A stretch of DNA of 64,000 nt from Sediminibacterium sp. GTDB taxonomy: Bacteria; Bacteroidota; Bacteroidia; Chitinophagales; Chitinophagaceae. Positions 1,733 to 57,813 of the stretch are shown here, in pieces. The position numbers and the translations under genes were made by a program. The DNA is taken from NCBI GenBank assembly GCA_044337245.1, contig JBIINW010000001.1, forward strand, positions 9,528 to 73,527. The letters are read 5' to 3'. The notes under the pieces are model-generated. The model was given only the letters and a program-made list of their open reading frames with translations, made no database searches and was not told the origin of the DNA. Each line of letters begins with the position of its first letter. Position 1 is the stretch's first letter.

Positions 1733-3079
1733 TTAGGCTTCGGGAGCTTTGCGTAATGACCGGGTAATAAAAAATAGGCCAATAAAAGCAGCCAGCACGC
1801 CCAAACCTATCAGGGCTGTTACGGGAGTTTGCATAAAAATACTTACCCCCACAAAGCAATAAGCCGCCATAAATAACAGGGGAATGAAGGGAAATAATTT
1901 CATCTTAAAAATGCCGGTGCCATCCAGATGGGCGGTTCGCTTTCGCAAGATAAATATGGTTGCACTGGAAGCTACCATCCCAAAACAATCGAGAAATATG
2001 GTAAAGTTGAGTATCTTCTCAAAGGTTTGGGCAAAAAACAAAATTACGATGCAAATTCCGGCAAATACGGTTAACGAAGCTACCAATACATCATTTTTAT
2101 CCGATTTTTTGGCAAATAGGGCTGGTAAAACACCTTCTTCGCTCATGGCAAACATTACTCTAGGATTGCTCATCAATAAAGCATTTACATAGGCCAAAAC
2201 CCCAAAGAATAAGAAAAAGGAGAAAATATCTGCTCCAGACTTGCCAAAGGTTTTCATCATCAGCACATAGGCTATTTCTTTTTCTCCCTTCATCTGTTCA
2301 AAGCCTACAATTTGGTAATAACTAAAATTGGCTAACAGGTATAAGGCAATTATTATGGCAATGCCGATAAATATCCCCTTAGGAATATTCTGTGCAGGTT
2401 TTTTTACTTCACTGCCAAAATTTATGGTTTGCTGATATCCTCCGTAGGTAAAACAAACCGCAATCATACTGGCCCCTAAACTTTTTATCCAAGGCATCCA
2501 TCCCACTTCAACTTCATTGGAAGCTGATACGGTTGCAGTTGGTATCGCCGCTCCCTGGTGAGGGAATAGAAGCGCCAGTATCAATACCCCAATCATACCA
2601 ATCTTAATAATCATGAGGATATTTTGTGCCCGCGAACTCAAAGACAATCCCCGCAAATTGATAAAATAAAACAGGATGATGGCTGCGCAACTGATTAAAG
2701 CTTTATCAATATCCGTCCAGGCAATTCCAGGAAATAATTTTGTAATATATCCACTCCCAATTAAAGCTACCCCGCTCAGGCTGGCCGCATTGCTGATTAA
2801 AATAATGCAGTTGATACCAAATGCAATACTGGGATGATAGGCATACGAAAATATTTTATAATATCCGCCAGTAACCGGATACCTACTGCCAATTTCTGCA
2901 TACGTGAGTGCGCCGCATAAAGCAATGATTCCACCCAAAATCCAGGCAGCAAAATATACCGAGGGAGTAATGGCAAAACTGGCGCTGGTAGCTGCTGATC
3001 GGAATATACCCATGCCAATCACCAATCCCACCACAATCATGGTGAAACTAAATAAATTCAATTGTTGTTTTGCTGCCAT
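1733..3079 (-). CDS. APC family amino-acid permease
   Basis: About 12 hydrophobic segments, G-x-V-I-G-M-G-I-F in TM1, GALTYAEIGSRYPVTGGYY and YGGYQ motifs. Likely start MAAKQQ at 3079. Confidence 0.9.
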   Translation of the reverse strand: MAAKQQLNLFSFTMIVVGLVIGMGIFRSAATSASFAITPSVYFAAWILGGIIALCGALTYAEIGSRYPVTGGYYKIFSYAYHPSIAFGINCIILISNAASLSGVALIGSGYITKLFPGIAWTDIDKALISCAAIILFYFINLRGLSLSSRAQNILMIIKIGMIGVLILALLFPHQGAAIPTATVSASNEVEVGWMPWIKSLGASMIAVCFTYGGYQQTINFGSEVKKPAQNIPKGIFIGIAIIIALYLLANFSYYQIVGFEQMKGEKEIAYVLMMKTFGKSGADIFSFFLFFGVLAYVNALLMSNPRVMFAMSEEGVLPALFAKKSDKNDVLVASLTVFAGICIVILFFAQTFEKILNFTIFLDCFGMVASSATIFILRKRTAHLDGTGIFKMKLFPFIPLLFMAAYCFVGVSIFMQTPVTALIGLGVLAAFIGLFFITRSLRKAPEA

Positions 3080-3219
3080 TATAAAAAAGTGTGCGTTAAA
3101 TATAAGACACTTATCTGAAACCCTTCCTTTCCCCTGAAAGTATCGTATAAATCGAGGTGAATTGGGAAGCCATTGAAATATTGCTACCTTCATATTCCCA
3201 ATAAATCCCCCAACTGTTT

Positions 3220-3798
3220 ATGAATATATCTATCAATGAATTGATAACGGTTAGTTTTACCTTATTTGCAGTAATAGATATTGTAGGATCGGTTCCCTTA
3301 TTGATTTCGCTGAAAGAAAAAATGGGAGGAATTCGTTCTATTCAGGCGACCTTAATTTCCGGGGCCCTGATGATTTTATTTTTATATGCAGGCGAACCAT
3401 TTTTGCGCATTTTGGGTTTAGATATCTATTCATTTGCGGTAGGTGGATCGGTGGTAATTTTTTTACTGGGATTAGAAATGGTATTGGGCCACGAAATATT
3501 TAAGGGAAATCAGGATATCAAATCCGGCACCCTTGTACCTATTGCATTTCCCATTATTGCCGGAAGCGGAACCCTTACCACCATTATGTCGCTGAAAGCA
3601 AATTTTAACGAAGCCTATATATTAAGTGGTATTTTAATAAACCTCGTAGTGGTTTATATCGTTCTTACTTCGCTAAAATTTATCGAACGAGTTCTGGGAC
3701 CCGCCGGGTTGATGGCAGTTCGTAAATTTTTTGGCGTAATTTTATTGGCAATAGCTGTTAAACTATTCAGCAGTAATATTGCCAAATTCGGAAAATAA
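3220..3798 (+). CDS. MarC family integral membrane protein
   Basis: LFAVIDIVG and VPIAFPIIAGSGTLTT motifs, six hydrophobic segments. Confidence 0.9.
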   Translation: MNISINELITVSFTLFAVIDIVGSVPLLISLKEKMGGIRSIQATLISGALMILFLYAGEPFLRILGLDIYSFAVGGSVVIFLLGLEMVLGHEIFKGNQDIKSGTLVPIAFPIIAGSGTLTTIMSLKANFNEAYILSGILINLVVVYIVLTSLKFIERVLGPAGLMAVRKFFGVILLAIAVKLFSSNIAKFGK

Positions 3799-3802
3799 AA
3801 AT

Positions 3803-5755
3803 TTAGGGTTTCTTTACCCAATCGTCTGTTCTAAACGGGGAAGCCGGTATTCCTTCCTTGTTATAAAGATTACATCCTTTGGGATTATTGGCCCAAGCAT
3901 AGCGAACTGCTATGGGTTCTGATATTGCATCGCTTTCTACCCTTACTTTATTTTTACCGATTATCGTAGCGGTAGCCCAAACAAATTTTTTATCGGCCCC
4001 TGCAATCGCAAATTGCTGAAGCGGTTGATCTCCGGTGGCTATCAATCCCGATCCGGCATGGCGGAAGGTTAACTCTATTGCTTTTCCTTTTTTAGTAAAA
4101 GAGGCTAATTCGGGACCAGAGTAAACCAAATTATTTTCTTGATAGGCAATTTTTCTGGCTGCCAGTGCAAGGCGGTCGCCTACTTCTTTTTTATTCAGTG
4201 GATGCACATCGTAGGTTTCACCTATATCGATGGTTACTGCTAAGCCTACATTGGGTAAGTCCATTGCTGCCTGTTGCTGTGCTTCGCGCAAATTTGCCCA
4301 ACCACTTTCGCCGGGTTCCTTTACTATTTCCATGTAATTAGCTAGCTGTACAATCAAAAACGGAAAATCGCCCTGCTGCCATCGGCTGCGCCAATCTTTT
4401 ATAAGTGCAGTTAACAGTTGCCGGTAATCACCCGCCCTTCCCCCATTGGATTCTCCCTGATACCAGGCCGCGCCTTTGATGGTGTAAGAAATTAAGGGAT
4501 GTATCATGCCATTATACAAGGTAATGGGCTGGGTAAACATTTTAACAAAACTAGCAACGGGTAGGGGTGCTACCAGGTTACCCGCAGCATACTCCCAATT
4601 TCCGGCTAAGCTTACCTCACTATCTTTAAATAGTAATCGATATTTTTTTTCTGCTATAAATCCTCCATTCCCATCGGTATCTACAATACGAACAGTAATC
4701 GTGTTGTTACCTTCCTTTAAAAAACCAGCGGGTACTTTATATTTTCGGGCTACATAGCGGTTGGTGCTATACCCTACCAGCACCCCATTAACATAAGTAG
4801 AGTCCGCATCATCAATCATCCCCAATTCTAACCAGGCTTCCGTACTTGCCTGTTGCGCAGTAAGTGCAAATTTCTTTTTACACCATACTACGCCATCCGC
4901 ATCTTTTAATCCATATTTTTCCCAAAAACCCGGCACCTGCATGCTACCTATATTATTTGCAGGAAAGTCGTTCTGTTTCCAATTATTTTCCGGTAGCCTT
5001 CCCTTATCGCCTTCCTTTGCATCTTTTTGCCATTGATTGGTAACCGTTCGTTCCCGAGTAATGGCTGCTTTCATATTTATTGAATCCTGATAAAAATGAT
5101 AACGCTCGAGATAACCAGAAAAATCACGTAACCCCTCTTCACTAATCCAAGATTCGGCAGGGGTTCCGCCCCAGGTACTCTTGATTACCGCCATGGGTAC
5201 TTTATATTTTTCGTACAAAGCCTTTACCATAAAATAAGCAACCGCCGAAAAACTGCCGATATTGGCAGGATTAGCCACCCGCCATTTTCCATTTAGCACT
5301 TGGTTGGGATGTAAAGCATATTGCTGGTTTACCTGAAATTCGCGAATCATTGGATTATTTGAAGCAGCAATTTCGTCCGGATATTTTTCGGTTAGTTTGC
5401 CCATTATAAAATCCATGTTCGACTGGCCAGAGCATAGCCACACATCTCCCATTAAAATTTCACGAATGGTTTTGGTTTCCTTACCTGCCTGAATGGTTAG
5501 CGTATACGGGCCTCCTGAAGGGGTTGCGGGTAATTGCAATTGCCAACGTTGTTGTGAATCTGCCAAGGCTTTGAATTCCTTCCCATTAAAACTTACGGTT
5601 ACCGGACCCTCTCCATTCCACCAGCCCCAAATATTCACGGGCTTGTCTCTTTGTAAAATCATACTGTCACTCACCATTGCCGGCAAACGAAGCTGTGTCT
5701 TTCCGGCAAAAGAGATCAACAAAGTGAAAAACAATAAACAACGATATTTAGTCAT
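3803..5755 (-). CDS. Sialate O-acetylesterase-like (SASA/SGNH) secreted esterase
   Basis: Signal peptide, GDVWLCSGQSNM, WGGTPAESW, WYQGESN and DVHP motifs, with an inserted sugar-binding jelly-roll segment (LELGMIDDADSTYVNG). Confidence 0.88.
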   Translation of the reverse strand: MTKYRCLLFFTLLISFAGKTQLRLPAMVSDSMILQRDKPVNIWGWWNGEGPVTVSFNGKEFKALADSQQRWQLQLPATPSGGPYTLTIQAGKETKTIREILMGDVWLCSGQSNMDFIMGKLTEKYPDEIAASNNPMIREFQVNQQYALHPNQVLNGKWRVANPANIGSFSAVAYFMVKALYEKYKVPMAVIKSTWGGTPAESWISEEGLRDFSGYLERYHFYQDSINMKAAITRERTVTNQWQKDAKEGDKGRLPENNWKQNDFPANNIGSMQVPGFWEKYGLKDADGVVWCKKKFALTAQQASTEAWLELGMIDDADSTYVNGVLVGYSTNRYVARKYKVPAGFLKEGNNTITVRIVDTDGNGGFIAEKKYRLLFKDSEVSLAGNWEYAAGNLVAPLPVASFVKMFTQPITLYNGMIHPLISYTIKGAAWYQGESNGGRAGDYRQLLTALIKDWRSRWQQGDFPFLIVQLANYMEIVKEPGESGWANLREAQQQAAMDLPNVGLAVTIDIGETYDVHPLNKKEVGDRLALAARKIAYQENNLVYSGPELASFTKKGKAIELTFRHAGSGLIATGDQPLQQFAIAGADKKFVWATATIIGKNKVRVESDAISEPIAVRYAWANNPKGCNLYNKEGIPASPFRTDDWVKKP

Positions 5756-5813
5756 GTCGGTATTTTAAAGTGTTCGGTTTTCAAGATACGTTTTTAGCAT
5801 AAAACAGTCACCC

Positions 5814-7634
5814 TTATGAAAAATAATATAAAATCCAAATAGTAACCCCTGCCAGCAAGGCGGAATAAAAATCAGTTGAATGCAAAAAGGGTTGCCTTTT
5901 TATTTCGGTTTTAGCACGAGGAGAAAAATAGCGGAGTCCGGCAAATAACGCCGCAGTAAACAGTGCTGCCGGCCAGGATAAGGAAGCAGCCGTAAATCCA
6001 GCATATATCAAACAGCCGAAGAAAAGATGTCCGCCAACAAAAAATGAAATTGGCAGCACCATTTTTTTGGCTGAACCCATCACATCCATATCATTTACCG
6101 GAATGTTTGAAGGCTGTTTTTTATTTAGCCAATAAGAAAGAATAGATTGAATCATTATACATCCAATGAACACAATCATTACCCGGTGTAAGAAATTAAT
6201 ATGCTCACCCAAATAACTATGCAGGAGGGGGATGGATGAAAAATAGTGGTCGTAACTATATTCAACTGCCCAGCTTAATAAAGGAGAGATGATTAATACA
6301 GCCACTGCCGAGGAAGGATGTATTTTTTTAAAACATACGCCCATAAAAAATACCGTAACAATACCCGGCTTTAGGTAGGAACTATTTTTAGAAAGCACCA
6401 GAAAAAAATTGCCGCCCGATGTGGGGGTGAATGTAACGAATGCAAGTACTGCAGCCAAAGCAGTTAATATTACCACAAACCATCTTCCTGCTAAAACCAA
6501 TTGTTGGTCGGTAGCATTTCGATGAAAGTATTGCTGATAAATATCTACCGTTAATAAAGTAGAAGCTGCATTGAGCATAGAATAAATACTCGAAAAAATA
6601 GCCGCTGTTAATCCGGCCAATATCCAACCAAATAAACCATATCCTGCAGGAACCACTTTACTCATTAATACCAGAAATGCATCATCGGGCTGAACGCCCT
6701 CTAAGTGCCAAGTATATTTAAAAAGATAAGCAGCTGCCACTCCTGCAGCAATGGAGAAAAAGGGAATGGTAAGTTTTAAAAATCCCGCAACAATCGCTCC
6801 CAGTTGTGCATCGCGATTGGTTTTGGCAGAAAGTACCCGCTGCACTTCAAACTGATTGGTGGTCCAGAAAAATCCCTGTAATACCAAGAGTCCACTAAAT
6901 ACCCCAGTCCAGGGAAGGTCGGGATGATTAGTTGGCAGATACAATTTCATCTTGTGTTGCCCCACTGCACTAGTATCAAGATGCAGTAAGCCCGACAAGC
7001 CCCCAATTTCTGCTCTACTCAGCGTTAGCCAACCTACTATTACCAAAGAAGATACCATCAAAACAGTAATCATATTTTCCGAAACAACCAGCGATTGCAT
7101 TCCGCCCCAGCAAATCAGGCAACAGGATATCACAGCGATACAGAGAATCCCCTGCAGGTAGGAGAAAGTGAAGTTGCCCACTGTAAATAACAATCCCAGT
7201 TGGCGACTGCCAATATATAAACCACCCACCAATAAAATAAGAATGATACCAATGATGCAGATACTGTAGATCAATCTAGCCCCGGAATTATACCTGTGTT
7301 CCAGATAAGCGGAAAGGGTAAATACGCCTCGCTGTCGATAAACCGGAATAAACACATAGCAGAGAAATATGATAGCGGGGATGGCCAGTATTTCGTAATG
7401 ACTTTGCGCGAATCCGATGGAATAGCCAATACCGAGCATGCCGATAATTTGAGATAGGCTCACATTGGCTCCATAAATGGACCCGGCTACCGACCACCAG
7501 CGTAGGGTTCTACCGGCCATAAAATAATCTTCCGCATTTTTCTTTTTCCTACCTGCCCAGATACCGCATCCCACTAAATAAAGCGTTAGTGCTGCAAAAA
7601 CCAACCAATCTGTAAACCCCAGCAATTGTAGCAT
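5814..7634 (-). CDS. Sodium:solute symporter (SSS/SLC5, sugar-transporter-like)
   Basis: EDYFMAGR, WGGMQS and NQFEVQRVLSAK motifs, more than 13 hydrophobic segments. Confidence 0.9.
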   Translation of the reverse strand: MLQLLGFTDWLVFAALTLYLVGCGIWAGRKKKNAEDYFMAGRTLRWWSVAGSIYGANVSLSQIIGMLGIGYSIGFAQSHYEILAIPAIIFLCYVFIPVYRQRGVFTLSAYLEHRYNSGARLIYSICIIGIILILLVGGLYIGSRQLGLLFTVGNFTFSYLQGILCIAVISCCLICWGGMQSLVVSENMITVLMVSSLVIVGWLTLSRAEIGGLSGLLHLDTSAVGQHKMKLYLPTNHPDLPWTGVFSGLLVLQGFFWTTNQFEVQRVLSAKTNRDAQLGAIVAGFLKLTIPFFSIAAGVAAAYLFKYTWHLEGVQPDDAFLVLMSKVVPAGYGLFGWILAGLTAAIFSSIYSMLNAASTLLTVDIYQQYFHRNATDQQLVLAGRWFVVILTALAAVLAFVTFTPTSGGNFFLVLSKNSSYLKPGIVTVFFMGVCFKKIHPSSAVAVLIISPLLSWAVEYSYDHYFSSIPLLHSYLGEHINFLHRVMIVFIGCIMIQSILSYWLNKKQPSNIPVNDMDVMGSAKKMVLPISFFVGGHLFFGCLIYAGFTAASLSWPAALFTAALFAGLRYFSPRAKTEIKRQPFLHSTDFYSALLAGVTIWILYYFS

Positions 7635-7644
7635 GTAGTTAATA

Positions 7645-8808
7645 TTAGCGAAGGGAAGCGGTGGTGAGTGGAGTTATGGGGGTGGAGGAAGGTTTTCTTC
7701 CCTGCAGCACATTCAGCTGTGCCAGAGAAAGTTGAGGCAAAATATGTTCGGCAACCAAACGAGCTTCTTCCAACAGCGGATAACCCGACAAAATAAAGGA
7801 ACGAATACCCATATCCATGTATCGATTAAGTTTGGCCACAATTTGAGCAGGGGTTCCAACCAATGCGCCACCACACCCGCTGCGGGCACGACCAATGCCC
7901 ATCCAGAGATTGGGTTCTACAAAATCATCCGCATCGGCTTGTTGGTTTCGGAGCGCATCTTGTCGCTTTACTCCCTCCGATTGGGCATCCTGGGCTCTGT
8001 TTTTCAAATTGAGGGTATGCTCATCAAAGCGGCTCATGATATGCCGGGCATAGTCTCGGGCTTCCTGTTCAGTTTCTCTTACGATAATATGTATGCGCAA
8101 TCCAAAATCGATTGTTCGGTTTTCCGCAGCTGCCCGCATGCTCATATCCTGCATGGTTGCATAGATACTTTCTTCTGTTTCGGGCCACATCAAAAATACA
8201 TCACAATAGCGGGCACATAAATCACGCGAACCGGGAGAAGTTCCGCCAAAATACAGCAGCGGTCCGCCATTTTGCTGATAGGGCTTTACGGGATCAGTTG
8301 AAAGCTGTAAATCAGTATATACTTTACCCTGATGATGGATGGTATCTTTCGTCCAGGCCTGTTGCAGAATTTCAATCACTTCCGCACAGCGTTGGTATCT
8401 GAATGCTGGATCTTCGCGCAACCCGGGTAAATCAGAATTGATGATATTAATCGTGAGTCGCCCCTCCAACAAATGGTCGAGCGTGGCAATATGCCTTGCC
8501 AGCATGGGGGGATGAATTTCTCCGGTTCTGATGGCAAGCAGCAAATTCATTTGATGGGTACTTCCGGCCAAGGCAGCCGCAAAGGGAATTCCCTCTTGCC
8601 CAACCATATAGGAGGTTGGCAACAACAAATTCTTAAACCCCTGTTGATCAGCCAGTTGGGCAATTGAACTGCAATGGGCAGCATTACTTCGCCGACTTTC
8701 ATCCAATACGCCCAAGAATTCAGTATCACCCCCGCATAAATCATCGAACCAAGCAACTTCACAGCTGCGGGCGGCAGTTCGGATGGGTACACAAGTATAT
8801 GTTGCCAT
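7645..8808 (-). CDS. LLM-class flavin-dependent monooxygenase, SsuD-related and resembling sulfoquinovose monooxygenase SmoC
   Basis: ATLDHLLEGRLTINII, KPYQQNGGPLLYFGG, CDVFLMWPE and LWMGIGRARSGCGGALVG motifs. Likely start MATY at 8808. The SmoC resemblance is from recollection of that family, not a search. Confidence 0.85.
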   Translation of the reverse strand: MATYTCVPIRTAARSCEVAWFDDLCGGDTEFLGVLDESRRSNAAHCSSIAQLADQQGFKNLLLPTSYMVGQEGIPFAAALAGSTHQMNLLLAIRTGEIHPPMLARHIATLDHLLEGRLTINIINSDLPGLREDPAFRYQRCAEVIEILQQAWTKDTIHHQGKVYTDLQLSTDPVKPYQQNGGPLLYFGGTSPGSRDLCARYCDVFLMWPETEESIYATMQDMSMRAAAENRTIDFGLRIHIIVRETEQEARDYARHIMSRFDEHTLNLKNRAQDAQSEGVKRQDALRNQQADADDFVEPNLWMGIGRARSGCGGALVGTPAQIVAKLNRYMDMGIRSFILSGYPLLEEARLVAEHILPQLSLAQLNVLQGRKPSSTPITPLTTASLR

Positions 8809-8916
8809 AGAGTAAGATGGAGACAAACAAATTAGCAAAATTCTTTCAAATTAAAGATATTTGATAGGAAACTACTGGGTGTATCCCGGAAAAAATCTTA
8901 AACATAAACAAAGTAT

Positions 8917-9678
8917 ATGCGAAACTCAATTTCTATCAAACTATTCGGTTTTATTTTTTTAGCTGTATTTATATTTCTTGAGGGTTGTATCAATATGTCT
9001 AAACAAGAGGCTGCCGACAAACCAGTTGGTAAGCAGGTAGTAGATTCAACTGCTAATTATCTAATTAAAGTAAATTATCCTGCAGAGCCTCAAGACAAAG
9101 AAGAGGTGATGAAAAAATGGGTTGACCTGAAGCTGAGTGATAAAAAATTTGAATGGAAAAATCTTACCACGCCTCGAAATGAGTATCAAATCAATTATTC
9201 AGTTGTACAATCTGATTCTTCCCAAACAGTGAGTTATCTAATGAATGAATATGAAAACACGGGCGGGGCGAGTGGTAATCAAAAAGTAACCAGCTTTTCT
9301 TTCAGAAACAACCAATTAATGGATATCCAGGGCATTCTGAATTTTTCGAATGGCAATGACTTACAGTTAACCAAATTGCTGGCTACCAAAGCTGCTACCG
9401 ACACGAATACATTCAGTGCTGCCATGTTGAATGAAAGTTTTGGTTTGAACTTTCTAAAAAAAGATGGCGTATCACTAGACACGGCCAAATGTAAGTGCAA
9501 TGCATTTTTCTTTGGCTCGAATTTACAGTGCTATGTAATTCGCAATGAAGGGATTGGTTTTGTGTTTGGAAAGTATGTGGTTGGACCGGGTTCATCACAA
9601 ACGCCTGAGATTTTACTCGACTGGAAAACACTGGCCCCATTTATACAAACCGGCTTTGAAAGAACACCCAAGAAATAG
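8917..9678 (+). CDS. Putative lipoprotein, RsiV/DUF3298-like fold
   Basis: Lipobox-like LEGC after a hydrophobic stretch. YENTGGASG and GIGFVFGKYVVGPGS resemble DUF3298/RsiV proteins. Confidence 0.55.
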   Translation: MRNSISIKLFGFIFLAVFIFLEGCINMSKQEAADKPVGKQVVDSTANYLIKVNYPAEPQDKEEVMKKWVDLKLSDKKFEWKNLTTPRNEYQINYSVVQSDSSQTVSYLMNEYENTGGASGNQKVTSFSFRNNQLMDIQGILNFSNGNDLQLTKLLATKAATDTNTFSAAMLNESFGLNFLKKDGVSLDTAKCKCNAFFFGSNLQCYVIRNEGIGFVFGKYVVGPGSSQTPEILLDWKTLAPFIQTGFERTPKK

Positions 9679-9717
9679 CGAAGGCAAACACATTCACATT
9701 TTAACCTTGTGACTCCT

Positions 9718-10743
9718 ATGAAACGGAAAGCATTTATCCAACAAAGTGTACTGACTACTGGTGGCTTGATATTATTGAAAGACACCCTTGCTCGGGATAA
9801 GGGAAAAGTTTTTGGTCATAATAATATTACGTATCGGCTGGATGAAAAATGGGGACAATTAGATACGAATGTACATCCGGTAAATGATTGTCACGAAATG
9901 GTGCAGGATAGCCGGGGCAGAATCATATTACTCACGAATGAAACGAAGAACAATGTGCTAATTTATAGTAAATCGGGCAGGTTACTTAGTTACTGGGGTA
10001 CAGAATATCCGGGGGCACATGGGTTAACAATTCAAAGGAATGGACGAGAAGATTTTTTATTTATCACCGATACGCAGTTGCACCAAGTATATAAAACGAC
10101 TAATAAAGGCAAGAAGCTATTAACTATTGATGTGCCCCTTGATGCGGGTATTTATAAAAATAAAGAGGAATTTGTACCTACCGAAACTACTGTATTAGAA
10201 AATGGAGAGTTTTACGTGGCAGATGGATATGGGGCGCAGTATATTTTACATTACGATGCGAATGGTAAACTGAAAAACTATTTCGGAGGGCGTGGAAAGG
10301 AAGATTATCATCTGGACAATGCCCATGGCATCACCCTAGATACTCGTTCTGGTTCCCCTACCCTGCTGATAACAGATAGAACACGTGCCTGCTTTAAACG
10401 ATTTTCGTTAGAAGGAAAATTGCTCGAGATTATACATATCCCCGGGGCAGCGGTTTGTCGTCCGGTTATTAAGGGCAAATATTTGTATGCAGCGGTTTTA
10501 CGATCTCCCAATCTGGATAAATCGAATTCCGGTTTTGTAACCATCCTGAATGAAAACAACCAGGTAGTATCCAATATAGGTGGCACAGAACCCATCTATG
10601 AAAATGGAAAATTACAACCGCTTGCACAGGCAGATCCGATTTTTAAACACCCGCATGATGTTTGTGTAGATGAAGACGATAATATTTATGTGGCTCAGTG
10701 GGCTTCGGGAAAAGTGTATCCGTATAAGTTGAAGCGGGTGTAA
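9718..10743 (+). CDS. NHL-repeat six-bladed beta-propeller (peptidylglycine amidating lyase-like)
   Basis: Tat-like leader MKRKAFIQQS. AHGL, YVADGYG, AHGI and HPHDVCVD blade motifs. Confidence 0.8.
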   Translation: MKRKAFIQQSVLTTGGLILLKDTLARDKGKVFGHNNITYRLDEKWGQLDTNVHPVNDCHEMVQDSRGRIILLTNETKNNVLIYSKSGRLLSYWGTEYPGAHGLTIQRNGREDFLFITDTQLHQVYKTTNKGKKLLTIDVPLDAGIYKNKEEFVPTETTVLENGEFYVADGYGAQYILHYDANGKLKNYFGGRGKEDYHLDNAHGITLDTRSGSPTLLITDRTRACFKRFSLEGKLLEIIHIPGAAVCRPVIKGKYLYAAVLRSPNLDKSNSGFVTILNENNQVVSNIGGTEPIYENGKLQPLAQADPIFKHPHDVCVDEDDNIYVAQWASGKVYPYKLKRV

Positions 10744-10864
10744 ACAAAAAATTATCCATAGACAATTTCAAGTTCCTATTTTTTTAAATTATGATAGATA
10801 AACGCTATAGTAAATCCCACTATAATATAAATTAAAAATTTAATAAATTTTTTCATCGCATTTT

Positions 10865-11608
10865 CTAATTTAAACGATACTGTTTTTTTAGTGTTTTACT
10901 TAATAGTAAGCATTGATTCTGTAATCTTTTAGCCATATTGACTTTTCTCAATGCCCCTCCCTTTACATATTGAAGTCGAATAATCACCGTATTAATAGCT
11001 CCCTCATCTTCAGAAATCAACTGTGGATTATTGATTGGCTTTATTATTTCATTATTGTCGTTGAGCATAGCATAGAAAACTCTTCCATCAAACAATTTTT
11101 CTAACACATAAGATGCTTCCTCAATTCGAACAGTACTCCGCTCTAGGAAATATTCGAATTCTCTACCGTTCTTATCGTACTCCATAATTTTTTTTGCAAT
11201 ATCATCTTTGTCAATTAATCGAAGATTTCCTGCAAATTTTAATTGGTTCAAAGTGCCCTCACTTAAAACTATATTACTTGCTCTTATTATTTGGCGAGCA
11301 AAATAGTAAGCCTGATTTCCATCTTTTTTGTAGGTTTTATGAACAAATATTTGTAGTAATGAATCCAAACTTTTGATCTCCCTTTCCCCAGTTGTTATAA
11401 AAGCAGATAAAGAAATAGAGTCTGCTAATAAATCTTGTTGCATTTGTACAACATACTTTTTTTCACGTTGATTTTCAATATAATGCTCAAGTTGTAATTC
11501 CGCCAGTGAGCCACAAAAAACGGCCAAAAAGAGCATGAAAAATTCCCAGAAATACTCTTTCCACACTTTTTTATGAGCATTCCCATGAGAATGGTGATGA
11601 ACTTCCAT
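10865..11608 (-). CDS. Uncharacterised membrane-anchored protein, MEVHH family (copy A)
   Basis: His-rich N-terminus, WKEYFWEFFMLFLAVFCG transmembrane segment, TLNQLKFAGNLRLI. Confidence 0.8.
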   Translation of the reverse strand: MEVHHHSHGNAHKKVWKEYFWEFFMLFLAVFCGSLAELQLEHYIENQREKKYVVQMQQDLLADSISLSAFITTGEREIKSLDSLLQIFVHKTYKKDGNQAYYFARQIIRASNIVLSEGTLNQLKFAGNLRLIDKDDIAKKIMEYDKNGREFEYFLERSTVRIEEASYVLEKLFDGRVFYAMLNDNNEIIKPINNPQLISEDEGAINTVIIRLQYVKGGALRKVNMAKRLQNQCLLLSKTLKKQYRLN

Positions 11609-11623
11609 TGGTTCGGTTTTATA

Positions 11624-12367
11624 TTATAAATTATACTTCTTTTCTAAAAAAATAATCAACCCTGTCGCTTTTTCCTTTTGCTGGATTAAATACTCTCTGT
11701 TAACCTTCAAAATCAGCAAAGAACGTGCTAAATGTCCAAAAAATAATTGAAGTTGCGCCGGTTGAATTGAAAGGGGCGGCAAATCTTTTCTCAATAATTT
11801 TCTTTTAGAAAGGTCTAAATAAGTTGAATCAGCAAATACCCAAGCCTGAAATATCGAATACCCTATCTTCCATATTTCATCAGTGCTATTTTGTATAAAT
11901 TCGTTATGATAAACAATTAGTTCGGACCTTTTATCATAACTTAAGAGGCTGTCGCTTACCTCTTTTTTATTGACCAACCTAAGATTACCTGAACTTTTCA
12001 ATTGTACAAGGGTAGCATCATTGGGACGAAAAATTGGATTAGAAGCACCCTCAATAAATCTCTCGTAAAACTCGATGTCATAAGCATGTGTAGACAAATC
12101 CTGTTTGCCTAGTTGCAAAAGCGAGTACCAGGCATCTGACTTTACCAGATTACGCTCAATTACTTTACGAATATCCGCTGTATCAGATCGAAGATTTTGA
12201 ATGAAACTGGCAATGTATTCTTTTTCCCTATGTCGTTCAATATAAGTCTCGCGAATATTTTCGGCAACAAATCCTAAAAATACCGCCAAAAACAACATCA
12301 GAAATTCCAAAAAATATTCTTTCCATTTTTTTTTATGACTTAGATGATGAGGATGATGTACTTCCAT
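11624..12367 (-). CDS. Uncharacterised membrane-anchored protein, MEVHH family (copy B)
   Basis: Same 247-aa length and motifs as copy A: MEVHH, WKEYFLEFLMLFLAVFLG, TLVQLKSSGNLRLV. Confidence 0.8.
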   Translation of the reverse strand: MEVHHPHHLSHKKKWKEYFLEFLMLFLAVFLGFVAENIRETYIERHREKEYIASFIQNLRSDTADIRKVIERNLVKSDAWYSLLQLGKQDLSTHAYDIEFYERFIEGASNPIFRPNDATLVQLKSSGNLRLVNKKEVSDSLLSYDKRSELIVYHNEFIQNSTDEIWKIGYSIFQAWVFADSTYLDLSKRKLLRKDLPPLSIQPAQLQLFFGHLARSLLILKVNREYLIQQKEKATGLIIFLEKKYNL

Positions 12368-14724: not shown

Positions 14725-15879
14725 TTATAGCATTTCCTGGAGGGCAGCGGGTAAAAAAACGCGGGTGGGCACACTGGTCATGATGGAGAAATCATCCCCT
14801 AGAGATGACTGATTATCTAAAAACCGGAAAATACGTTGTACCGGATTCTTCCGGAAAATGGCAGCGAAAATCTGATCACCTGCCATCCGTTCATTGCTGA
14901 GTACATTCAATAAAACACTATCATATAAACGGTTTTTTTGCGTTGAAAAACTTATAGGGGATGAGTTTACATTGCCCGCCTTCATGAATCGAACCATTTC
15001 ATCGGCCTTTTTTTGTATAAACTGAAATGCATACCCACTGCTGGCTTTTACCTGTCCGCCCGCAGTTCCGATATACCTAACCGGCCCCTCTTGTTGCGTA
15101 AAGCGATGATTCGTCATGGGAATAACACCCCCTTCGATATGTTCAATAGTATAGGAATCTTGGGTGATGTATTGCTCTATATAACTTCGCAAGGCTTCAT
15201 CATAGGCTTCTACAGAAAGCAGGTCACCCGAAAACAACGTATATTCTACCAAAGCTTTTCGCTTAGTTACGGGTAAAACATATACAAAAGTGGTACCTGC
15301 TTGCTGACTCACCCGAAAGTCCATAAAAGTAGCCATATCAGGTTGAAAACAATCCTGGGAGGTTTCTATGAGCCAGCCCTTAAAGTGCTGCAATAAATGA
15401 TAGGCACCTGATTGGTTGGCCGAAAGGCTGGTTTCTGTAAACAGGATACTATTTACCACAAAAGGGGCAGTAACATTTCCGGAAGCAAGCTGAACAGTAG
15501 CGATGCCATTGAAATGGGTGATACCAAGCACCTGTTCGGTTTTCCAGGTGATCAGGGGGCGGGTAGCGGCCAATTCCTGCACTCGAGTGTAAAGGTCTAT
15601 TCCACGTATCATCTTATACTGATAAGGAGCCAGTGGGGCTGCAACAGAAAATCCGTTCGAATGAAATTCCAACTGATTCCAACGATGAAAAACAATCGAC
15701 TCAAAAATACCCGGCTGCTGCTCCCAGAAACACCAGGTTCGGTCGTTGGTATTTTTTGCAGCAGCATCTATCACCAATATTTTTTTATCGGCAAAAAAAT
15801 CATCCAGCATCATGCGCATCAGCACACTCATACCTGCACAACCGGCACCAGTAATAATATAGTCGTAGTTTGTATTCAA
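14725..15879 (-). CDS. crtY: Lycopene beta-cyclase
   Basis: YDYIITGAGCAGMS dinucleotide-binding motif, NDRTWCFWE, IGTAGGQVKASSGY; lies in the carotenoid cluster. Confidence 0.88.
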   Translation of the reverse strand: MNTNYDYIITGAGCAGMSVLMRMMLDDFFADKKILVIDAAAKNTNDRTWCFWEQQPGIFESIVFHRWNQLEFHSNGFSVAAPLAPYQYKMIRGIDLYTRVQELAATRPLITWKTEQVLGITHFNGIATVQLASGNVTAPFVVNSILFTETSLSANQSGAYHLLQHFKGWLIETSQDCFQPDMATFMDFRVSQQAGTTFVYVLPVTKRKALVEYTLFSGDLLSVEAYDEALRSYIEQYITQDSYTIEHIEGGVIPMTNHRFTQQEGPVRYIGTAGGQVKASSGYAFQFIQKKADEMVRFMKAGNVNSSPISFSTQKNRLYDSVLLNVLSNERMAGDQIFAAIFRKNPVQRIFRFLDNQSSLGDDFSIMTSVPTRVFLPAALQEML

Positions 15880-15909
15880 TGAAAGAAAATTTGTTAGCTG
15901 GTAGGAAAA

Positions 15910-16377
15910 TCAGTGTTGTTGCAGTTGCTCATCCCTTTTTACTTTTTCCCAGTACTCGCGGGCAACCCATAACATACCAAAGCTTTCGCCTTCTTCCTTT
16001 CCCAAATGCTTGTGGTGCATTTTATGGGCCCAGCGGATCACTTTAATATATCGATTGTTGCTGCGTGAAAATAATTTGAACCGCTGGTGTATGATGATCT
16101 CATGTACCAAAAAATAAGCAAACCCATACATGGCTATACCAAAACCTATACCAACCGCCCAGTAATTGCCCTTCATGCTGCCGAGCATAATGCAAAGCCA
16201 GCTGGGTATGGCAAAAATCAAAAAGAAAGCATCATTTTTTTCGAAAAATCCTTCTTCTTTTTGGTGATGGTCTTTATGCAAATACCACAGAAACCCATGC
16301 ATCACATACCGATGGGTAAGCCATGTAACTGGCTCCATTACTAAAAATGTTAACAGGGCAACCAAAACGTAGATCAT
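15910..16377 (-). CDS. crtZ: Beta-carotene hydroxylase
   Basis: His boxes HRYVMHG, HKDHH, HEIIIHQR and HKMHH, plus FEKNDAF. Confidence 0.92.
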   Translation of the reverse strand: MIYVLVALLTFLVMEPVTWLTHRYVMHGFLWYLHKDHHQKEEGFFEKNDAFFLIFAIPSWLCIMLGSMKGNYWAVGIGFGIAMYGFAYFLVHEIIIHQRFKLFSRSNNRYIKVIRWAHKMHHKHLGKEEGESFGMLWVAREYWEKVKRDEQLQQH

Positions 16378-17066
16378 AGCGTATAAAAAGTTCGGATGGC
16401 GAAAAAGAACAAAATCTGTATAAACAACAAATTTACAGCGAATTGGTTTACTTTTTTAAAGCCACTCTGCTGGAAAACCAGCATCAACAGGGCACTGATG
16501 ATAAACCAGCACACATAATTGAAAATGGGAATGCTCCCCTGCAGCCAGGTCCAATACCCCAATTTTACCGCTGCAGGCTCTAGAAACCAGTCAAATAAGG
16601 TAGCCAGCAAAGCCGAATCTACAATCAATGAAAATTGCAACCAGCGCTCGGGAATCTGTTCCGAACTTGGGCCTATCCATTGCAATAATTTTTCATGCAC
16701 CAACATCATACATTGACCACTACACCAAACTACCAAAAACCAGTTTACCCCTATCAAAAAGGGCACCCCCTTTACTCCGGTACCCAACAAGGTACCATAT
16801 CGATACTCCCCAAATAGTAGACCAGTATTCACCCCAATCATTTCAGTAATCATACCCACTCCAAATGCCAGCAGAGCAAACCAATAAAATTTGGCAGTTC
16901 TTTCATTATTGGTCCACAATAATAAACCCAACATTACACAAAGGTTTACTGGCGTCATTTGTATAAACCAATCGCTGTAAGTGCCGGTAATCATACCCAG
17001 CACCCCGCTCACATGAAAGAGCAGGGCAACAGACGTAGCGATGATAAATTTAGACTGACCCTCCAT
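16374..17066 (-). CDS. cruF: Carotenoid 1,2-hydratase (CruF/DUF422 family)
   Basis: EMIGVNTGLLFGEYRYG, GVPFLIGVNW, DWFLEPAAVKLGYWTW and PIFNYVCW motifs. ATGA overlap with crtZ. Confidence 0.8.
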   Translation of the reverse strand: MEGQSKFIIATSVALLFHVSGVLGMITGTYSDWFIQMTPVNLCVMLGLLLWTNNERTAKFYWFALLAFGVGMITEMIGVNTGLLFGEYRYGTLLGTGVKGVPFLIGVNWFLVVWCSGQCMMLVHEKLLQWIGPSSEQIPERWLQFSLIVDSALLATLFDWFLEPAAVKLGYWTWLQGSIPIFNYVCWFIISALLMLVFQQSGFKKVNQFAVNLLFIQILFFFAIRTFYTL

Positions 17067-17075
17067 ACTATAAAA

Positions 17076-18614
17076 TTAATGCAGGGAATCAACAATATTG
17101 AGTATCTCCAATTGTTTTTGCCAGATGATTTTTTCTGTGATGGCTGCGCTGCTTAAACAAAGCGGTATACCACCTCCGGGGTGCACACTTCCGCCTACGA
17201 AATACAATCCGGGAATCTGATTACTGAAATTCGGGTGCCGCAAAAAAGCCGCCAGCTTCGAGTTAGAGCTGGTGCCATATAAAGAACCACTATACGAATC
17301 GGTGAGAGATTCTATACTTACCGGATCGGCAACGGTTTCGGAAACAATCAAATCTTCTACCGAAATACCCAATATCCTACTCAGTTTTGCAATAATTCGT
17401 TCCCGCGATTGCTGGCGAAATAGTTCCCAATCCTGACCTACATTGGCAGGAACATTAATCATCACAAACCAGTTTTCCATTCCTTCGGGAGCCTGCACAC
17501 CCGGTTCGCACTTAGAAGTGATATTAATATACACGGTAGGATCTTCGTACAAGGTTTTGTGTTTGAACAAATGGGTAAACTCTGATTGATAGTTGCCGGA
17601 GAAAAAGATATTGTGCAGCGATAGTTGCGGAAAACTTTTCCGTATACCCCAGTAAAAAATCATAGCACTGCTACTGCGTTCTTGTTGCAGAATTTTTTTA
17701 GCTGCTACTGGTTGTTGCAATAAACGCAGGTAAGTAAAATAAACATCCACATTGCTAATTACCCAATTGGCGGGAACTACTTCACCTCCTACTTCTACGC
17801 CGGCTGCTTTCCCTTCGGATAAGATGATTCGGGTAACGGGACGATCGAAATAAAACTCCACACCCAGTTTTACGGCTAACCGATGTAATGCTCGGGTAAT
17901 AGTAATCATTCCACCCTTCGGATAAAAACTCCCCTCATTATGTTCTAGGTGCGAAATCATAGTAAGCATGCCGGGGGCACTGTAGGGATTACTGCCGTTG
18001 TAAGTGGCATATCTGTCGAACAACTGCACCGTTTTCGGATTTCGAAAAGATGATTGGTTGAGGGAATGCATGGAACGAAACAAATGCTTCCAGCTGGTGG
18101 CAGCAATGGCTGGGCCTATAGCAGCATCCTGCAAGGTAGATGACTTGTGCAGCGAATGCGTTAAAAATATATTACCAACCTGTTTGAATAAGCGATTGGC
18201 TTTTTGCAGGTAGCTCATGATATCCGACTCTTTTTCTCCATGCTTTAACGCCAGTTCCAATGCCAATAATTCTTTATCTGCATAGGCTTTCACCATTGGG
18301 CCATCTTCATAAAAATAATGGCAGGATACCGGTAATTTTTCATAACTGAAATAAGCCTCTATAGGTTCTCCGGCCAAAGCAAACAATTCTTCTATTAGGT
18401 GAGGGCGGGTAAATAAACTGGGGCCTGCATCAAACTGAAAGCCATCTTTTTCAAAATGATGCAGTTTGCCTCCGGGGAAGGAATTTTTTTCAAATACTTT
18501 TACCTGAAATCCTCGGCAAGCCATTCGGATAGCGGTTGCCAAACCGGCCACACCGGCACCGATAACAATTACTTGTTGCTCTTTAGGTAAGAGAGGAGTA
18601 GATTTTTTTTTCAT
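17076..18614 (-). CDS. crtD: 1-hydroxycarotenoid 3,4-desaturase
   Basis: GAGVAGL FAD motif, FDAGPSLFT, FDRYATYNGS and GGSVHPGGGIPLCLSSA. Second desaturase in the cluster, beside cruF. Start moved to ATG 18614, overlapping the idi stop. Confidence 0.82.
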   Translation of the reverse strand: MKKKSTPLLPKEQQVIVIGAGVAGLATAIRMACRGFQVKVFEKNSFPGGKLHHFEKDGFQFDAGPSLFTRPHLIEELFALAGEPIEAYFSYEKLPVSCHYFYEDGPMVKAYADKELLALELALKHGEKESDIMSYLQKANRLFKQVGNIFLTHSLHKSSTLQDAAIGPAIAATSWKHLFRSMHSLNQSSFRNPKTVQLFDRYATYNGSNPYSAPGMLTMISHLEHNEGSFYPKGGMITITRALHRLAVKLGVEFYFDRPVTRIILSEGKAAGVEVGGEVVPANWVISNVDVYFTYLRLLQQPVAAKKILQQERSSSAMIFYWGIRKSFPQLSLHNIFFSGNYQSEFTHLFKHKTLYEDPTVYINITSKCEPGVQAPEGMENWFVMINVPANVGQDWELFRQQSRERIIAKLSRILGISVEDLIVSETVADPVSIESLTDSYSGSLYGTSSNSKLAAFLRHPNFSNQIPGLYFVGGSVHPGGGIPLCLSSAAITEKIIWQKQLEILNIVDSLH

Positions 18615-19135
18615 GCCACTTGCTGCCAACTTAACCAATCCGCTAATTTTGGAAATGCGATATGAAACCAGGGGGTAAATTCTTGAGGTTGCTGAGTAAT
18701 CAATTCGTGAATTTCATCTACGTATAGATACTTATAGTCTGCTACTTCAGCAGAGTTCGGTTGAACAGGCCCATCGTAGTATCCTACAAATACATGATCA
18801 AATTCGTACTCAGTTAATCCGTTGGAAAAAGTTGCTTTATAAACAAAGTCAAACACTTTTTTCAAAGGGGTAGTAAAGCCCATTTCCTCCTGTAAGCGGC
18901 GAGTGGCAGCAGCAATGGTTTCCTCTTCGGGGCGGGGATGACTACAACAGGTGTTAGTCCACATACCGCCACAGTGATATTTTTCAGCAGCCCTTTGTTG
19001 CAAGAGTAGTTGACCCCGATTATTAAATACAAAAACGCTGAATGCCCGGTGTAACGAAGCGCTGCGATGGGCCTCCATTTTTTCCATGGTGCCGATGGCT
19101 TCATCCCGCTCATTTACCAGTATCAGTTGTTCCAT
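18611..19135 (-). CDS. idi: Isopentenyl-diphosphate delta-isomerase (type 1)
   Basis: HRAFSVF, WTNTCCSHP, RRLQEEMG and EYEFDHVF motifs. Confidence 0.95.
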   Translation of the reverse strand: MEQLILVNERDEAIGTMEKMEAHRSASLHRAFSVFVFNNRGQLLLQQRAAEKYHCGGMWTNTCCSHPRPEEETIAAATRRLQEEMGFTTPLKKVFDFVYKATFSNGLTEYEFDHVFVGYYDGPVQPNSAEVADYKYLYVDEIHELITQQPQEFTPWFHIAFPKLADWLSWQQVA

Positions 19136-19149
19136 CAGTAGTTGCAGGT

Positions 19150-19986
19150 TTAGAGTAAATTCAATTGACTCCGGATGCCGGCCTTGGCCAATATCAGCAT
19201 TTTTCCATGATCGGGAATGCGTATGCGATACTGGAGGATATTTTGTGGGGGAACTTTTTTAATCTTTTTAAATAACGACAAATAGTATTTATACGCTACA
19301 TATACCCCAAAGCGGGCTTTTTCGGGCAATGCGCGTATTCCCAGATAGGCATGATAAAAATCGTTTTGAATATCGCTTTCAATTGCCTCTTTATCCCGCT
19401 GTGAAAAATTATTGAAATCACAGCCTGGAAAATATACCCTTTCTAAACCCTCATAATCTGCTTTTAAATCGCGCAAGAAATTCACTTTCTGAAAAGCAGC
19501 CCCCAAACTGCGGGCAGGTGCTTTGAGAGATTCGTACTGCTCCCGGTTTCCATCACAAAAAACAAACAGGCACATTAAGCCCACCACTTCCGCACTACCG
19601 TATATATATTCTTCGTATCCATTTTGATCGTAAGCCACCCTGTTTAAGTCCATTTCCATGCTATGAAAAAAAGCCTCAATCAGGGCGTGGTCTATTTGAT
19701 ATTGGTTAACCGTTAACTGGAAACTGTGTAAAATTGGGTTTAGACTGATACCCCGACTAATGGCATCATAGGTTTGCTTTTTAAAATCGGCCAGCAAATA
19801 GGCTTTATCCTGGTCGTGAAAAGTGTCTACAATTTCATCTGCCAGGCGAACAAATCCGTAAATATTGAAAATGGGGGTACGCAAATCTTTGTGCAAAATT
19901 TTGATGGCAGACGAAAAACTGGTGCTATACAACTCCGTAGTCAGTTTACTGCACGACTGGCTGAGTTGATGAAATAAGCGTACCAT
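19150..19986 (-). CDS. crtB: Phytoene synthase
   Basis: YGFVRLADEIVD, YIYGSAEVVGLMC and AFQKVNFLRD motifs. Confidence 0.95.
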   Translation of the reverse strand: MVRLFHQLSQSCSKLTTELYSTSFSSAIKILHKDLRTPIFNIYGFVRLADEIVDTFHDQDKAYLLADFKKQTYDAISRGISLNPILHSFQLTVNQYQIDHALIEAFFHSMEMDLNRVAYDQNGYEEYIYGSAEVVGLMCLFVFCDGNREQYESLKAPARSLGAAFQKVNFLRDLKADYEGLERVYFPGCDFNNFSQRDKEAIESDIQNDFYHAYLGIRALPEKARFGVYVAYKYYLSLFKKIKKVPPQNILQYRIRIPDHGKMLILAKAGIRSQLNLL

Positions 19987-20082
19987 ACGAAGGAATTAAG
20001 ATAGAAATTTAATAATTTTTTTTGGAATTGAACAAACCTTTCGAATGATTATCCAAAATCTGGGTGACTATTAGCTATTTAT

Positions 20083-21579: not shown

Positions 21580-21600
21580 AAGCGATAGTTGAAAAGTTTT

Positions 21601-22101
21601 TTAATGACGGTTGATTTGAGTTTTCAGCAATTTACGGGCAAAATGTATCCTGCTTTTGATAGTTCCCAGCGGCTCTTGTAACATATCTGCAATTTCGTGG
21701 TATTTATAGCCATCGAAATATAATAAGAAAGGATTACGAAAAATTTCCGGCAAATCTTGAATGGCCTGCTGAACCTCTTTCAGATTGATGGTAGCAATTG
21801 CTTCATTGCTAACGGTACCCTGTTGGGTGTTGATTAGAAAATCATTGGGCGTATAATCGAAAATCGTTTGCTGCTTTGCTTTTCTGCGGTAGTTGTTGAT
21901 GAATATATTCCGCATGATGGTATACAACCAGGCTTTGATGTTGGTTCCAACGTTGTACTTGTCTTTATTCGCCAAAGCACGAAACAAAGTTTCTTGATAC
22001 AAATCTTTAGCTGCTTCGTGATCGTGTGTTAACGTGTGCGCGAATGGCTTTAAAAATTCTGCATTGTTTAACAAGAGTCTGTTGAATTCAACTGTTGACA
22101 T
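21601..22101 (-). CDS. ECF RNA polymerase sigma factor
   Basis: Region 2 (DLYQETLFRAL, KAWLYTIMRNIFIN) and region 4 (YHEIADMLQEPLGTIKSRIHFARK); 166 aa. Confidence 0.93.
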   Translation of the reverse strand: MSTVEFNRLLLNNAEFLKPFAHTLTHDHEAAKDLYQETLFRALANKDKYNVGTNIKAWLYTIMRNIFINNYRRKAKQQTIFDYTPNDFLINTQQGTVSNEAIATINLKEVQQAIQDLPEIFRNPFLLYFDGYKYHEIADMLQEPLGTIKSRIHFARKLLKTQINRH

Positions 22102-22127
22102 AGCCCGTTTGTTTAAGTTTTACAAAA

Positions 22128-22135
22128 CAAAGTTA
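22128..22135 (-). promoter_or_regulatory. Bacteroidota -7 box for the ECF sigma/crt operon
   Basis: TAACTTTG on the minus strand, 26 bp upstream of the ATG. A second box, TAAGTTTG, is at 22246-22253. Confidence 0.6.
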
Positions 22136-22350
22136 AACAAAAAACAAATACCAATCATAGTAAAATAAAATATATGTGTTATTTATATATTGATTTACAA
22201 TATTTTAAACATAATAAAATAATTTTTGTTTAAACTGCTGCATATCAAACTTAAACAAATAAATAAAAACATTCGTTCCTTCACATAGGCATATAGCTAA
22301 ATTTCCCTGAATTGGGGAGAAACTACATAATTAAACAAAACAGGGTGCAA

Positions 22351-57792: not shown

Positions 57793-57813
57793 ATTAAGGT
57801 GTTCGTGATTTGA

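Follow-up and report, generated by a model that had tools for sequence, protein, structure and literature searches.

The 64-kb stretch of Sediminibacterium DNA analysed here, referred to as the window, carries a monooxygenase gene and a sodium symporter gene that we read as a two-gene cassette for the import and desulfonation of a 6-sulfonated hexose, most likely sulfoquinovose (SQ), an abundant sulfosugar of plants and algae. The predicted products are a luciferase-like monooxygenase (LLM) resembling the SQ monooxygenase SmoC and an SGLT-type sodium:solute symporter (SSS). We assign this reading a probability of roughly 0.7. The earlier note on this DNA had joined both genes with a downstream gene for a secreted esterase into a three-gene operon, which we do not favour.

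Likeness of the monooxygenase to SmoC

Over its full length, the LLM matched the SQ monooxygenases of A. tumefaciens (7OLF in the Protein Data Bank, PDB; 438.8 bits) and R. oryzae (7OH2; 431.2 bits) described by Sharma et al. (2022), whereas the scores against MsuD and SsuD were 207 and 197 bits, respectively. In an alignment of 163 sequences, the LLM showed identities of 53.2% to AtSmoC, 51.9% to RoSmoC and 36.4% to MsuD. An exhaustive representative search returned a tight SmoC-like family (one full-length representative, 62% identity), intermediates at 42–47% and SsuD-like proteins at about 35%. In a neighbour-joining tree, which is distance-based, rooted on MsuD and without support values, the LLMs of Bacteroidota formed the sister clade of 80 alphaproteobacterial SmoCs, with MsuD as a distant outgroup and seven cyanobacterial LLMs nested among the Bacteroidota sequences.

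The MsuD ternary complex defines a sulfonate-binding motif of W195, R225, R296 and S/A299 (PMC8234197), and the Trp and Arg of this motif are kept in the window LLM. The sulfonate loop GIGRARSGCG was invariant in 82 alphaproteobacterial, 73 Bacteroidota and seven cyanobacterial sequences, and reads GVGLVRGGSG in MsuD. The motifs that the earlier note had named as SmoC-like (WF..LC..D, RY.R..EV.EIL.QAWT, KPYQ..GGPLLYFGG, CDV.LMWPE, LW.GIGRARSGCG.ALVG and the C-terminal TP.TPL) were all present in the LLM, common to AtSmoC and RoSmoC, and different in MsuD. The bit scores, the identities, the tree and the loop thus agree with its claim that the protein stands nearer to SmoC than to SsuD or MsuD and, judged from its sequence, the LLM is a SmoC-type (SQ-monooxygenase-like) enzyme. 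The likeness to SmoC therefore stood, but the note had overlooked that the Bacteroidota proteins make up a distinct sister clade with a fixed replacement of His343 by Leu, referred to here as the Leu343 clade.

A generic SsuD-like alkanesulfonate monooxygenase, scavenging sulfur from assorted sulfonates, might be suggested by the annotation of homologs as alkanesulfonate monooxygenases and by the best NCBIfam match, which is the SsuD equivalog (TIGR03565). However, the score against this model (255.8 bits) is half of its curated cutoff (518.2 bits), the SmoC structures score twice as high as SsuD and MsuD, and the loop and the N-terminal motifs are of the SmoC type. Moreover, the partner of the LLM is a sugar-type SSS instead of SsuABC, and there is no ssuE, making an SsuD-like role highly improbable.

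Linkage of the symporter to SmoC homologs

The neighbourhoods of 80 related Bacteroidota and cyanobacterial loci (81 with the window; loci are numbered L001 onwards where they must be told apart) were compared by calling open reading frames (ORFs) in the fetched sequences, clustering them with BLASTP and annotating representatives. Among the 56 informative Bacteroidota loci, defined as those with at least 3 kb of sequence downstream of the SmoC homolog, 39 had a co-oriented SSS gene no more than three genes away; the SSS gene followed immediately in 20 loci and was separated only by a gene for a short-chain dehydrogenase/reductase (SDR) in 10. Reciprocally, fetching loci by the SSS gave 23 relatives of at least 49% identity, with a SmoC homolog immediately upstream in all of the informative loci (20/20); the remaining three begin at a contig edge, without upstream sequence. 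The next SSS relatives were 25–27% identical and stood without a SmoC homolog, and the window-type SSS was found in none of the alphaproteobacterial smo loci compared. The pairing of symporter and monooxygenase pointed out by the earlier note is thus conserved in both directions of search.

The SSS scored 186.9 bits against the sodium-sugar symporter vSGLT (2XQ2) and 207.5 bits against TIGR00813 (cutoff, 184 bits). Across 47 members of the SSS family, the positions of vSGLT N64, Q69, Y87, E88, W264 and K294, which we take to be the hexose-coordinating residues, were essentially invariant. The position of vSGLT Q428, presumably the one that contacts C6-OH/O5, was Ala or Ser in 44 of these 47 sequences and that of S435 was Lys in 42. 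This pattern would fit a hexose bearing a bulky anionic group at C6, without amounting to proof. An SSS-type SQ importer is not described in the literature searched.

The esterase and the boundaries of the cassette

As the earlier note had described, the three genes are co-oriented on the minus strand, and their coordinates confirm gaps of exactly 10 bp between LLM and SSS and exactly 58 bp between SSS and esterase (Table 1). The LLM ORF as called runs from 7645 to 8838 (-) and encodes 397 aa from a TTG start; since the 387 aa encoded from an in-frame ATG at 8808 equal the length of nearly all close homologs, this ATG is the likely start. Pfam assigned Bac_luciferase (1.2e-49) to the LLM, SSF (1e-41) to the SSS, and SASA with a GH2-N-like insert to the esterase.

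Table 1. Coordinates of the LLM–SSS cassette, the adjoining esterase gene and the intergenic regions
Feature	Position in window	Strand	Remarks
SmoC-type FMNH2-dependent LLM monooxygenase (assigned by sequence)	7645..8808	-	387 aa; Pfam PF00296, SmoC structure matches
SGLT-type sodium:solute symporter (SSS), proposed sulfosugar importer	5814..7634	-	606 aa; PF00474, TIGR00813
CE20 cluster II carbohydrate O-acetylesterase, secreted	3803..5755	-	650 aa; SGNH/SASA and GH2-N-like ancillary domain
Divergent intergenic region upstream of LLM, likely cassette promoter region	8809..8916	.	Promoter function inferred
58-bp SSS–esterase spacer, downstream junction of the LLM–SSS cassette	5756..5813	.	Boundary by blastn against L188

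A single sigma-70-like match (TTGATA-16-TATACT; 8939–8912) was located in the intergenic region upstream of the LLM, and promoter-like sites were fewer than in shuffled sequences. No exact Bacteroidota TAnnTTTG (-7) motif was present in the intergenic regions, and neither the 10-bp nor the 58-bp gap held a terminator-like site. As these scans were uninformative, it is the spacing of the genes that argues for their possible co-transcription. No riboswitch was detected by an Rfam scan of positions 3000–10000, which gave only a sub-threshold chance match to U6atac. A 15-nt imperfect direct repeat flanking the cassette (5767–5781 and 8938–8952; 13/15 identical) was also noticed and taken as probably due to chance, because one copy lies inside the neighbouring PdaC-like coding sequence.

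The esterase has a signal-like N-terminus and the motifs GQSNM (residue 110) and DVH (residue 516), and its best PDB matches were Fl8CE20_II (9H4U; 619 bits), PpCE20_II (9EGA; 566 bits) and 7KMM (433 bits). Characterised CE20 enzymes are de-O-acetylases only, and cluster II has been linked to xylan (PMC12313940). The esterase accompanied the SmoC homolog in five of the 81 loci, namely the window and L001–L004. Three otherwise syntenic loci (L005, L006 and L008) have LLM and SSS without the esterase, and their SSS is directly followed by MarC. The opposite configuration was observed in a near relative, L188 (MarC 97% and esterase 84% identical), in which the esterase is kept and LLM–SSS is absent. 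By blastn, L188 aligned to window positions 10743–8817 and 5695–2345 and lacked about 5696–8816; this 3.1-kb gap corresponds exactly to the LLM and SSS genes, in place of which L188 has 185 bp. In L188, the stretch preceding the esterase is homologous to what lies upstream of the LLM in the window, as far as the LLM start. The indel and the shared upstream region together indicate that LLM–SSS behaves as a discrete cassette placed between the upstream region and the esterase.

The three-gene operon, in which the secreted esterase would strip an acylated sulfosugar or sulfolipid of its acyl group before it is imported and desulfonated, draws on the co-orientation of the genes, the terminator-free 58-bp gap, the position of the esterase downstream of the same upstream region, and the linkage kept in L001–L004. 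The scarcity of this linkage, the opposite configurations in L005, L006, L008 and L188, and the restriction of known CE20 cluster II activities to the de-O-acetylation of xylan-type glycans argue against it. In addition, among the 80 closest CE20 loci, SmoC and SSS were present only in L187 and L189, both on contigs already represented by L002 and L001. We therefore regard the three-gene operon as very unlikely, and the part that the earlier note gave the esterase in a sulfosugar pathway is not upheld. The esterase is probably a neighbouring polysaccharide O-acetylesterase outside the sulfosugar function, though read-through or co-transcription into its gene is plausible.

Genes recurring beside SmoC homologs

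As a positive control, the same analysis of 67 alphaproteobacterial SmoC genes recovered families resembling aldo-keto reductase (AKR), flavin reductase, GntR, glycoside hydrolase (GH) family GH31, ABC transporters and TRAP transporters; these families were named by sequence appearance, except that AKR was assigned by its PDB match to SmoB. In the Bacteroidota loci, a classical SDR of 238 aa was recurrent, and a SorA/SorT-family molybdenum sulfite dehydrogenase together with a small CxxCH protein was found directly upstream of the SmoC homolog in related loci. Other recurrent neighbours were a TreC-like GH13, a TonB-dependent receptor, LysR and a YeiH-family putative sulfate exporter, and SoxA- and SoxB-like proteins occurred occasionally. 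The presence of sulfite-handling neighbours argues strongly, if circumstantially, for a substantial release of sulfite by the LLM. The YeiH, SDR and AKR families are common to the Bacteroidota loci and genuine alphaproteobacterial smo loci. A SmoB-like AKR was present only in L050 and L057 among the 80 loci and was not found in the 64-kb window; both of these loci are without the SDR, which fits a non-orthologous replacement.

The linked SDR was considered as a GH188 NAD+-dependent sulfoquinovosidase (SqgA) and rejected, as its PDB matches were classical SDRs of a generic kind, clavaldehyde dehydrogenase being one of the best. The TreC-like GH13 scored 558 bits against the phosphotrehalase subfamily model (cutoff, 535 bits) and stood upstream of the SmoC homolog in clusters of Cytophagales (L010, L013, L029, L034, L042, L046, L065 and others). 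The substrate of TreC is a 6-phospho-glucoside, so that this GH13 might conceivably act on a 6-sulfo-glucoside or on a glucoside already desulfonated. A role of this GH13 as an established sulfoquinovosidase was set aside and is kept as a hypothesis only, the sole tested precedent, MsGH13 of a Roseobacter smo cluster, being an alpha-glucosidase that is inactive on p-nitrophenyl SQ (PNP-SQ) and has no sulfoquinovosidase (SQase) activity.

Proposed pathway and points weighing against it

Considering these results, we propose the following scenario. The SSS may import a 6-sulfonated hexose, most likely SQ, driven by the Na+ gradient. The SmoC-type LLM, acting as a two-component enzyme with FMNH2 and O2, would then cleave the C6–S bond, yielding sulfite and 6-oxo-glucose (6-dehydroglucose). 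The FMNH2 would have to come from an unlinked flavin reductase, as presumed for Novosphingobium aromaticivorans, and 6-oxo-glucose would have to be converted to glucose by an unlinked reductase in the source genome. In many other Bacteroidota, the SDR encoded between LLM and SSS, or rarely a SmoB-like AKR, probably reduces the aldehyde. In relatives, sulfite may be handled by the adjacent SorA-type dehydrogenase with the small cytochrome c, and by the YeiH-type exporter. The CE20 esterase would merely be positioned after the cassette by chance. As Bacteroidota make sulfonolipids, the sulfonolipid capnine was considered as another substrate; it was rejected in view of the hexose-type SSS with its sugar-binding residues, the GH13 neighbours and the occurrence of the clade in cyanobacteria.

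Several findings weigh against this scenario. Sharma et al. (2022) proposed five residues for SQ recognition, Trp206, Arg236, His238, Tyr341 and His343. The first four are invariant everywhere, but position 343 is Leu in the window LLM, in 71 of 72 Bacteroidota sequences (the other has Met) and in all seven cyanobacterial ones, so that the window LLM does not carry the full set of five; the residue is His in all 80 alphaproteobacterial SmoCs. His is also found in MsuD, and His343 lies outside the experimentally verified sulfonate motif. Altogether, 26 fixed differences, His343-to-Leu included, separate the Bacteroidota clade from alphaproteobacterial SmoC, the identity of the LLM to characterised SmoC is only 52–53%, and members of the Leu343 clade are known from sequence alone. 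On the side of the symporter, the SSS is not within three genes of the SmoC homolog in about 30% of the informative Bacteroidota loci. Finally, the linked enzymes of the Agrobacterium pathway are missing: neither GH31 nor flavin reductase nor AKR was detected by Pfam scans of all larger ORFs in the 64-kb window, as the earlier note had already stated for the reductases and GH31, and a SmoA-like flavin reductase and GH31 were each found in 0/80 loci within 10 kb of the SmoC homolog.

The absence of GH31 from these loci, together with a linked SDR that is not GH188-like, can also be accommodated if the direct substrate of the Leu343 clade is an SQ glycoside, for example sulfoquinovosyl glycerol (SQGro), or another 6-sulfo sugar derivative. 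After desulfonation, the SDR would reduce the 6-oxo-glucoside and the GH13 alpha-glucosidase would cleave the alpha-glucoside so formed, with no need for an SQase. The recurrence of the TreC-like GH13 near the SmoC homolog would suit this alternative, as would the alpha-glucosidase nature of the Roseobacter GH13, and the pocket could be changed by the His343-to-Leu replacement together with 25 further fixed differences. However, AtSmoC is reported to be strictly specific for free SQ, without binding SQGro, and the sulfonate loop of the clade is identical to that of SmoC. Furthermore, GH13 is patchy, being within three genes of the SmoC homolog in 6 of the 37 loci well flanked on both sides and absent from the 64-kb window, and SQases may be encoded elsewhere in the genomes. 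We thus consider direct desulfonation of a glycoside unlikely. In a broader form, which we offer as a doubtful speculation, the Leu343 clade would represent an unrecognised route, widespread in Bacteroidota of fresh water and soil and passed on to heterocystous cyanobacteria. By this route, an SSS might import a glycoside such as SQ-glycerol, desulfonation would be followed by the SDR and then GH13, and the cyanobacteria would recycle the sulfur of their own sulfolipid. Import and desulfonation of free SQ by the two-gene cassette remains our preferred reading.

Distribution and significance of the Leu343 clade

Homologs of the LLM at 63–96% identity were found in Sediminibacterium, other Chitinophagaceae, Saprospiraceae, Spirosomataceae, other Cytophagales, Sphingobacteriales, Nostocales and Stigonema. 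Many are from freshwater metagenome-assembled genomes (MAGs), and the closest loci, L001–L003 (95–96%), are from lake MAGs. Of these, L001 (CAMBUH010000006.1; 96% identity) entered the database as a MAG of 'Chitinophaga pinensis'; since near-identical loci are labelled Sediminibacterium or Bacteroidetes, this species label looks unreliable.

Cyanobacterial SmoC-like genes were present in L055, L063, L068, L069, L071, L072 and L077, with 64–66% identity to the window LLM and Leu343, the match lying at about 10001–11137 in full-length loci. In L071, from Nostocales HT-58-2, an SDR gene directly follows the SmoC-like gene. The nesting of the cyanobacterial genes among those of Bacteroidota in the tree suggests horizontal transfer, and cyanobacteria that make sulfoquinovosyl diacylglycerol may use the SmoC-like gene for recycling sulfolipid sulfur. 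Outside the clade, a more distant LLM lineage (P0124; 47% identity, 351 aa) has independently acquired Leu at the position of His343 (SGYPLDDEAE), and the other intermediates have His; the switch between His and Leu is therefore recurrent in the wider family.

The oxygenolytic SQ monooxygenase (sulfo-SMO or sulfo-ASMO) route is the main way for a single organism to mineralise SQ completely. Published surveys recognise it where SmoC occurs together with SmoB/SquF or with a GH31 sulfoquinovosidase, and have recorded it from Alpha- and Betaproteobacteria, the Roseobacter clade, Actinomycetota, Spirochaetota and one Vibrio. As such marker-based surveys need the co-occurrence of SmoB/SquF or GH31, the Leu343 clade would escape them. 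The survey definition of a sulfo-SMO cluster, with SmoB/SquF within about 10 ORFs, a linked SQase of GH31 or GH188 and a linked flavin reductase, does not cover the window cassette. The characterised N. aromaticivorans also lacks a linked flavin reductase (PMC9594981), so this gene is not strictly defining. A 2026 review, which describes freshwater SQ degraders as largely uncharacterised and raises Bacteroidota as candidates with homologs of sulfoglycolytic genes, was the only item in the searched literature to combine sulfoquinovose, Bacteroidota and monooxygenase. The LLM–SSS architecture and the Leu343 clade are undescribed in that literature and are a variant of the sulfo-SMO system. The suggestion of a variant architecture differing from the Agrobacterium cluster, made in the earlier note, accordingly holds for the monooxygenase and the symporter but not for the esterase.

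Members of the clade are common among Chitinophagaceae, Saprospiraceae and Spirosomataceae from fresh water, with further occurrences in Nostocales and Stigonema. Should the clade act on SQ, a major phylum would be added to SQ and sulfite cycling, the SSS would be the first SSS-type sulfosugar importer within the searched literature, and the LLM would offer a naturally occurring His343Leu variant with which to probe the specificity of SmoC. The cluster is present in cultured isolates, among them Chitinophaga sp. YR573, Spirosoma fluviale DSM 29961, Niabella ginsenosidivorans, Fibrivirga algicola and Lacihabitans soyangensis.

Other features of the window

The remaining large ORFs of the window, scanned with Pfam, included genes for carotenoid synthesis, dTDP-rhamnose synthesis, a sulfatase, SusD and GldD, among others, a content that fits a Bacteroidota genome. 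The carotenoid cluster (14725–23241, minus strand) comprises lycopene cyclase, a probable hydroxylase, phytoene synthase, two desaturases and a NUDIX/IDI-like gene, and is followed by genes for an extracytoplasmic function (ECF) sigma factor and a MerR-B12-binding (CarH-like) regulator, an arrangement suggestive of pigmentation under the control of light and B12. Positions 36368–37936 (plus strand) encode a sulfatase whose C-terminal domain is of the SGSH type, and a SusD gene adjoins a 1030-aa ORF, presumed to be SusC, at 56350–60906 (minus strand). The sulfatase and SusD genes are unrelated to the cassette and show that the organism also handles sulfated glycans.

Two tandem paralogous genes of 247 aa (10865–11608 and 11624–12367, minus strand) start with MEVHH(H/P)H and have a predicted N-terminal membrane segment and no Pfam match. 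The pair also occurs in L006 and L008; in L188, about 250 bp stand where the window has about 2.1 kb, and the pair looks absent.

Comparison with known systems

The SSS shares the fold and the conserved hexose-coordinating residues of vSGLT/SGLT (3DH4, 2XQ2) but differs in the replacement of Gln428 by Ala or Ser, in Lys at the position of S435, and in a C-terminal extension to 606 aa; the SSS subfamily of the window was found only beside SmoC homologs. The esterase matches Fl8CE20_II (9H4U) and PpCE20_II (9EGA) over its full length, sharing the SGNH domain with the ancillary beta-sandwich, GQSNM and DxH. Unlike other CE20 cluster II esterases, however, the window member lies outside a xylan polysaccharide utilisation locus and adjoins a sulfosugar cassette.

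With SsuD/MsuD (E. coli 1M41; P. fluorescens 7JV3), the LLM shares the fold of group C two-component flavin monooxygenases and the W/R/R sulfonate-binding core. It is separated from them by an identity of about 36%, the different loop and a score below the SsuD equivalog cutoff. The partners of SsuD/MsuD are SsuE/MsuE and ABC transporters, whereas the partner of the window LLM is a sugar-type SSS.

The closest likeness is to SmoC/SquD (Atu3279, 7OLF; R. oryzae 7OH2; N. aromaticivorans SquD), with which the LLM shares the TIM-barrel family, full-length homology, W206, R236, H238, Y341, the sulfonate loop, the N-terminal WF..LC..D and the C-terminal TP.TPL tail. The SmoC/SquD clusters have ABC or TRAP transporters and the AKR SmoB/SquF, whereas the Bacteroidota loci have SSS and mostly SDR, often with a SorA-type sulfite dehydrogenase and without GH31 and SmoA. 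The hosts of SmoC/SquD are Proteobacteria, whereas those of the Leu343 clade are Bacteroidota and Cyanobacteria.

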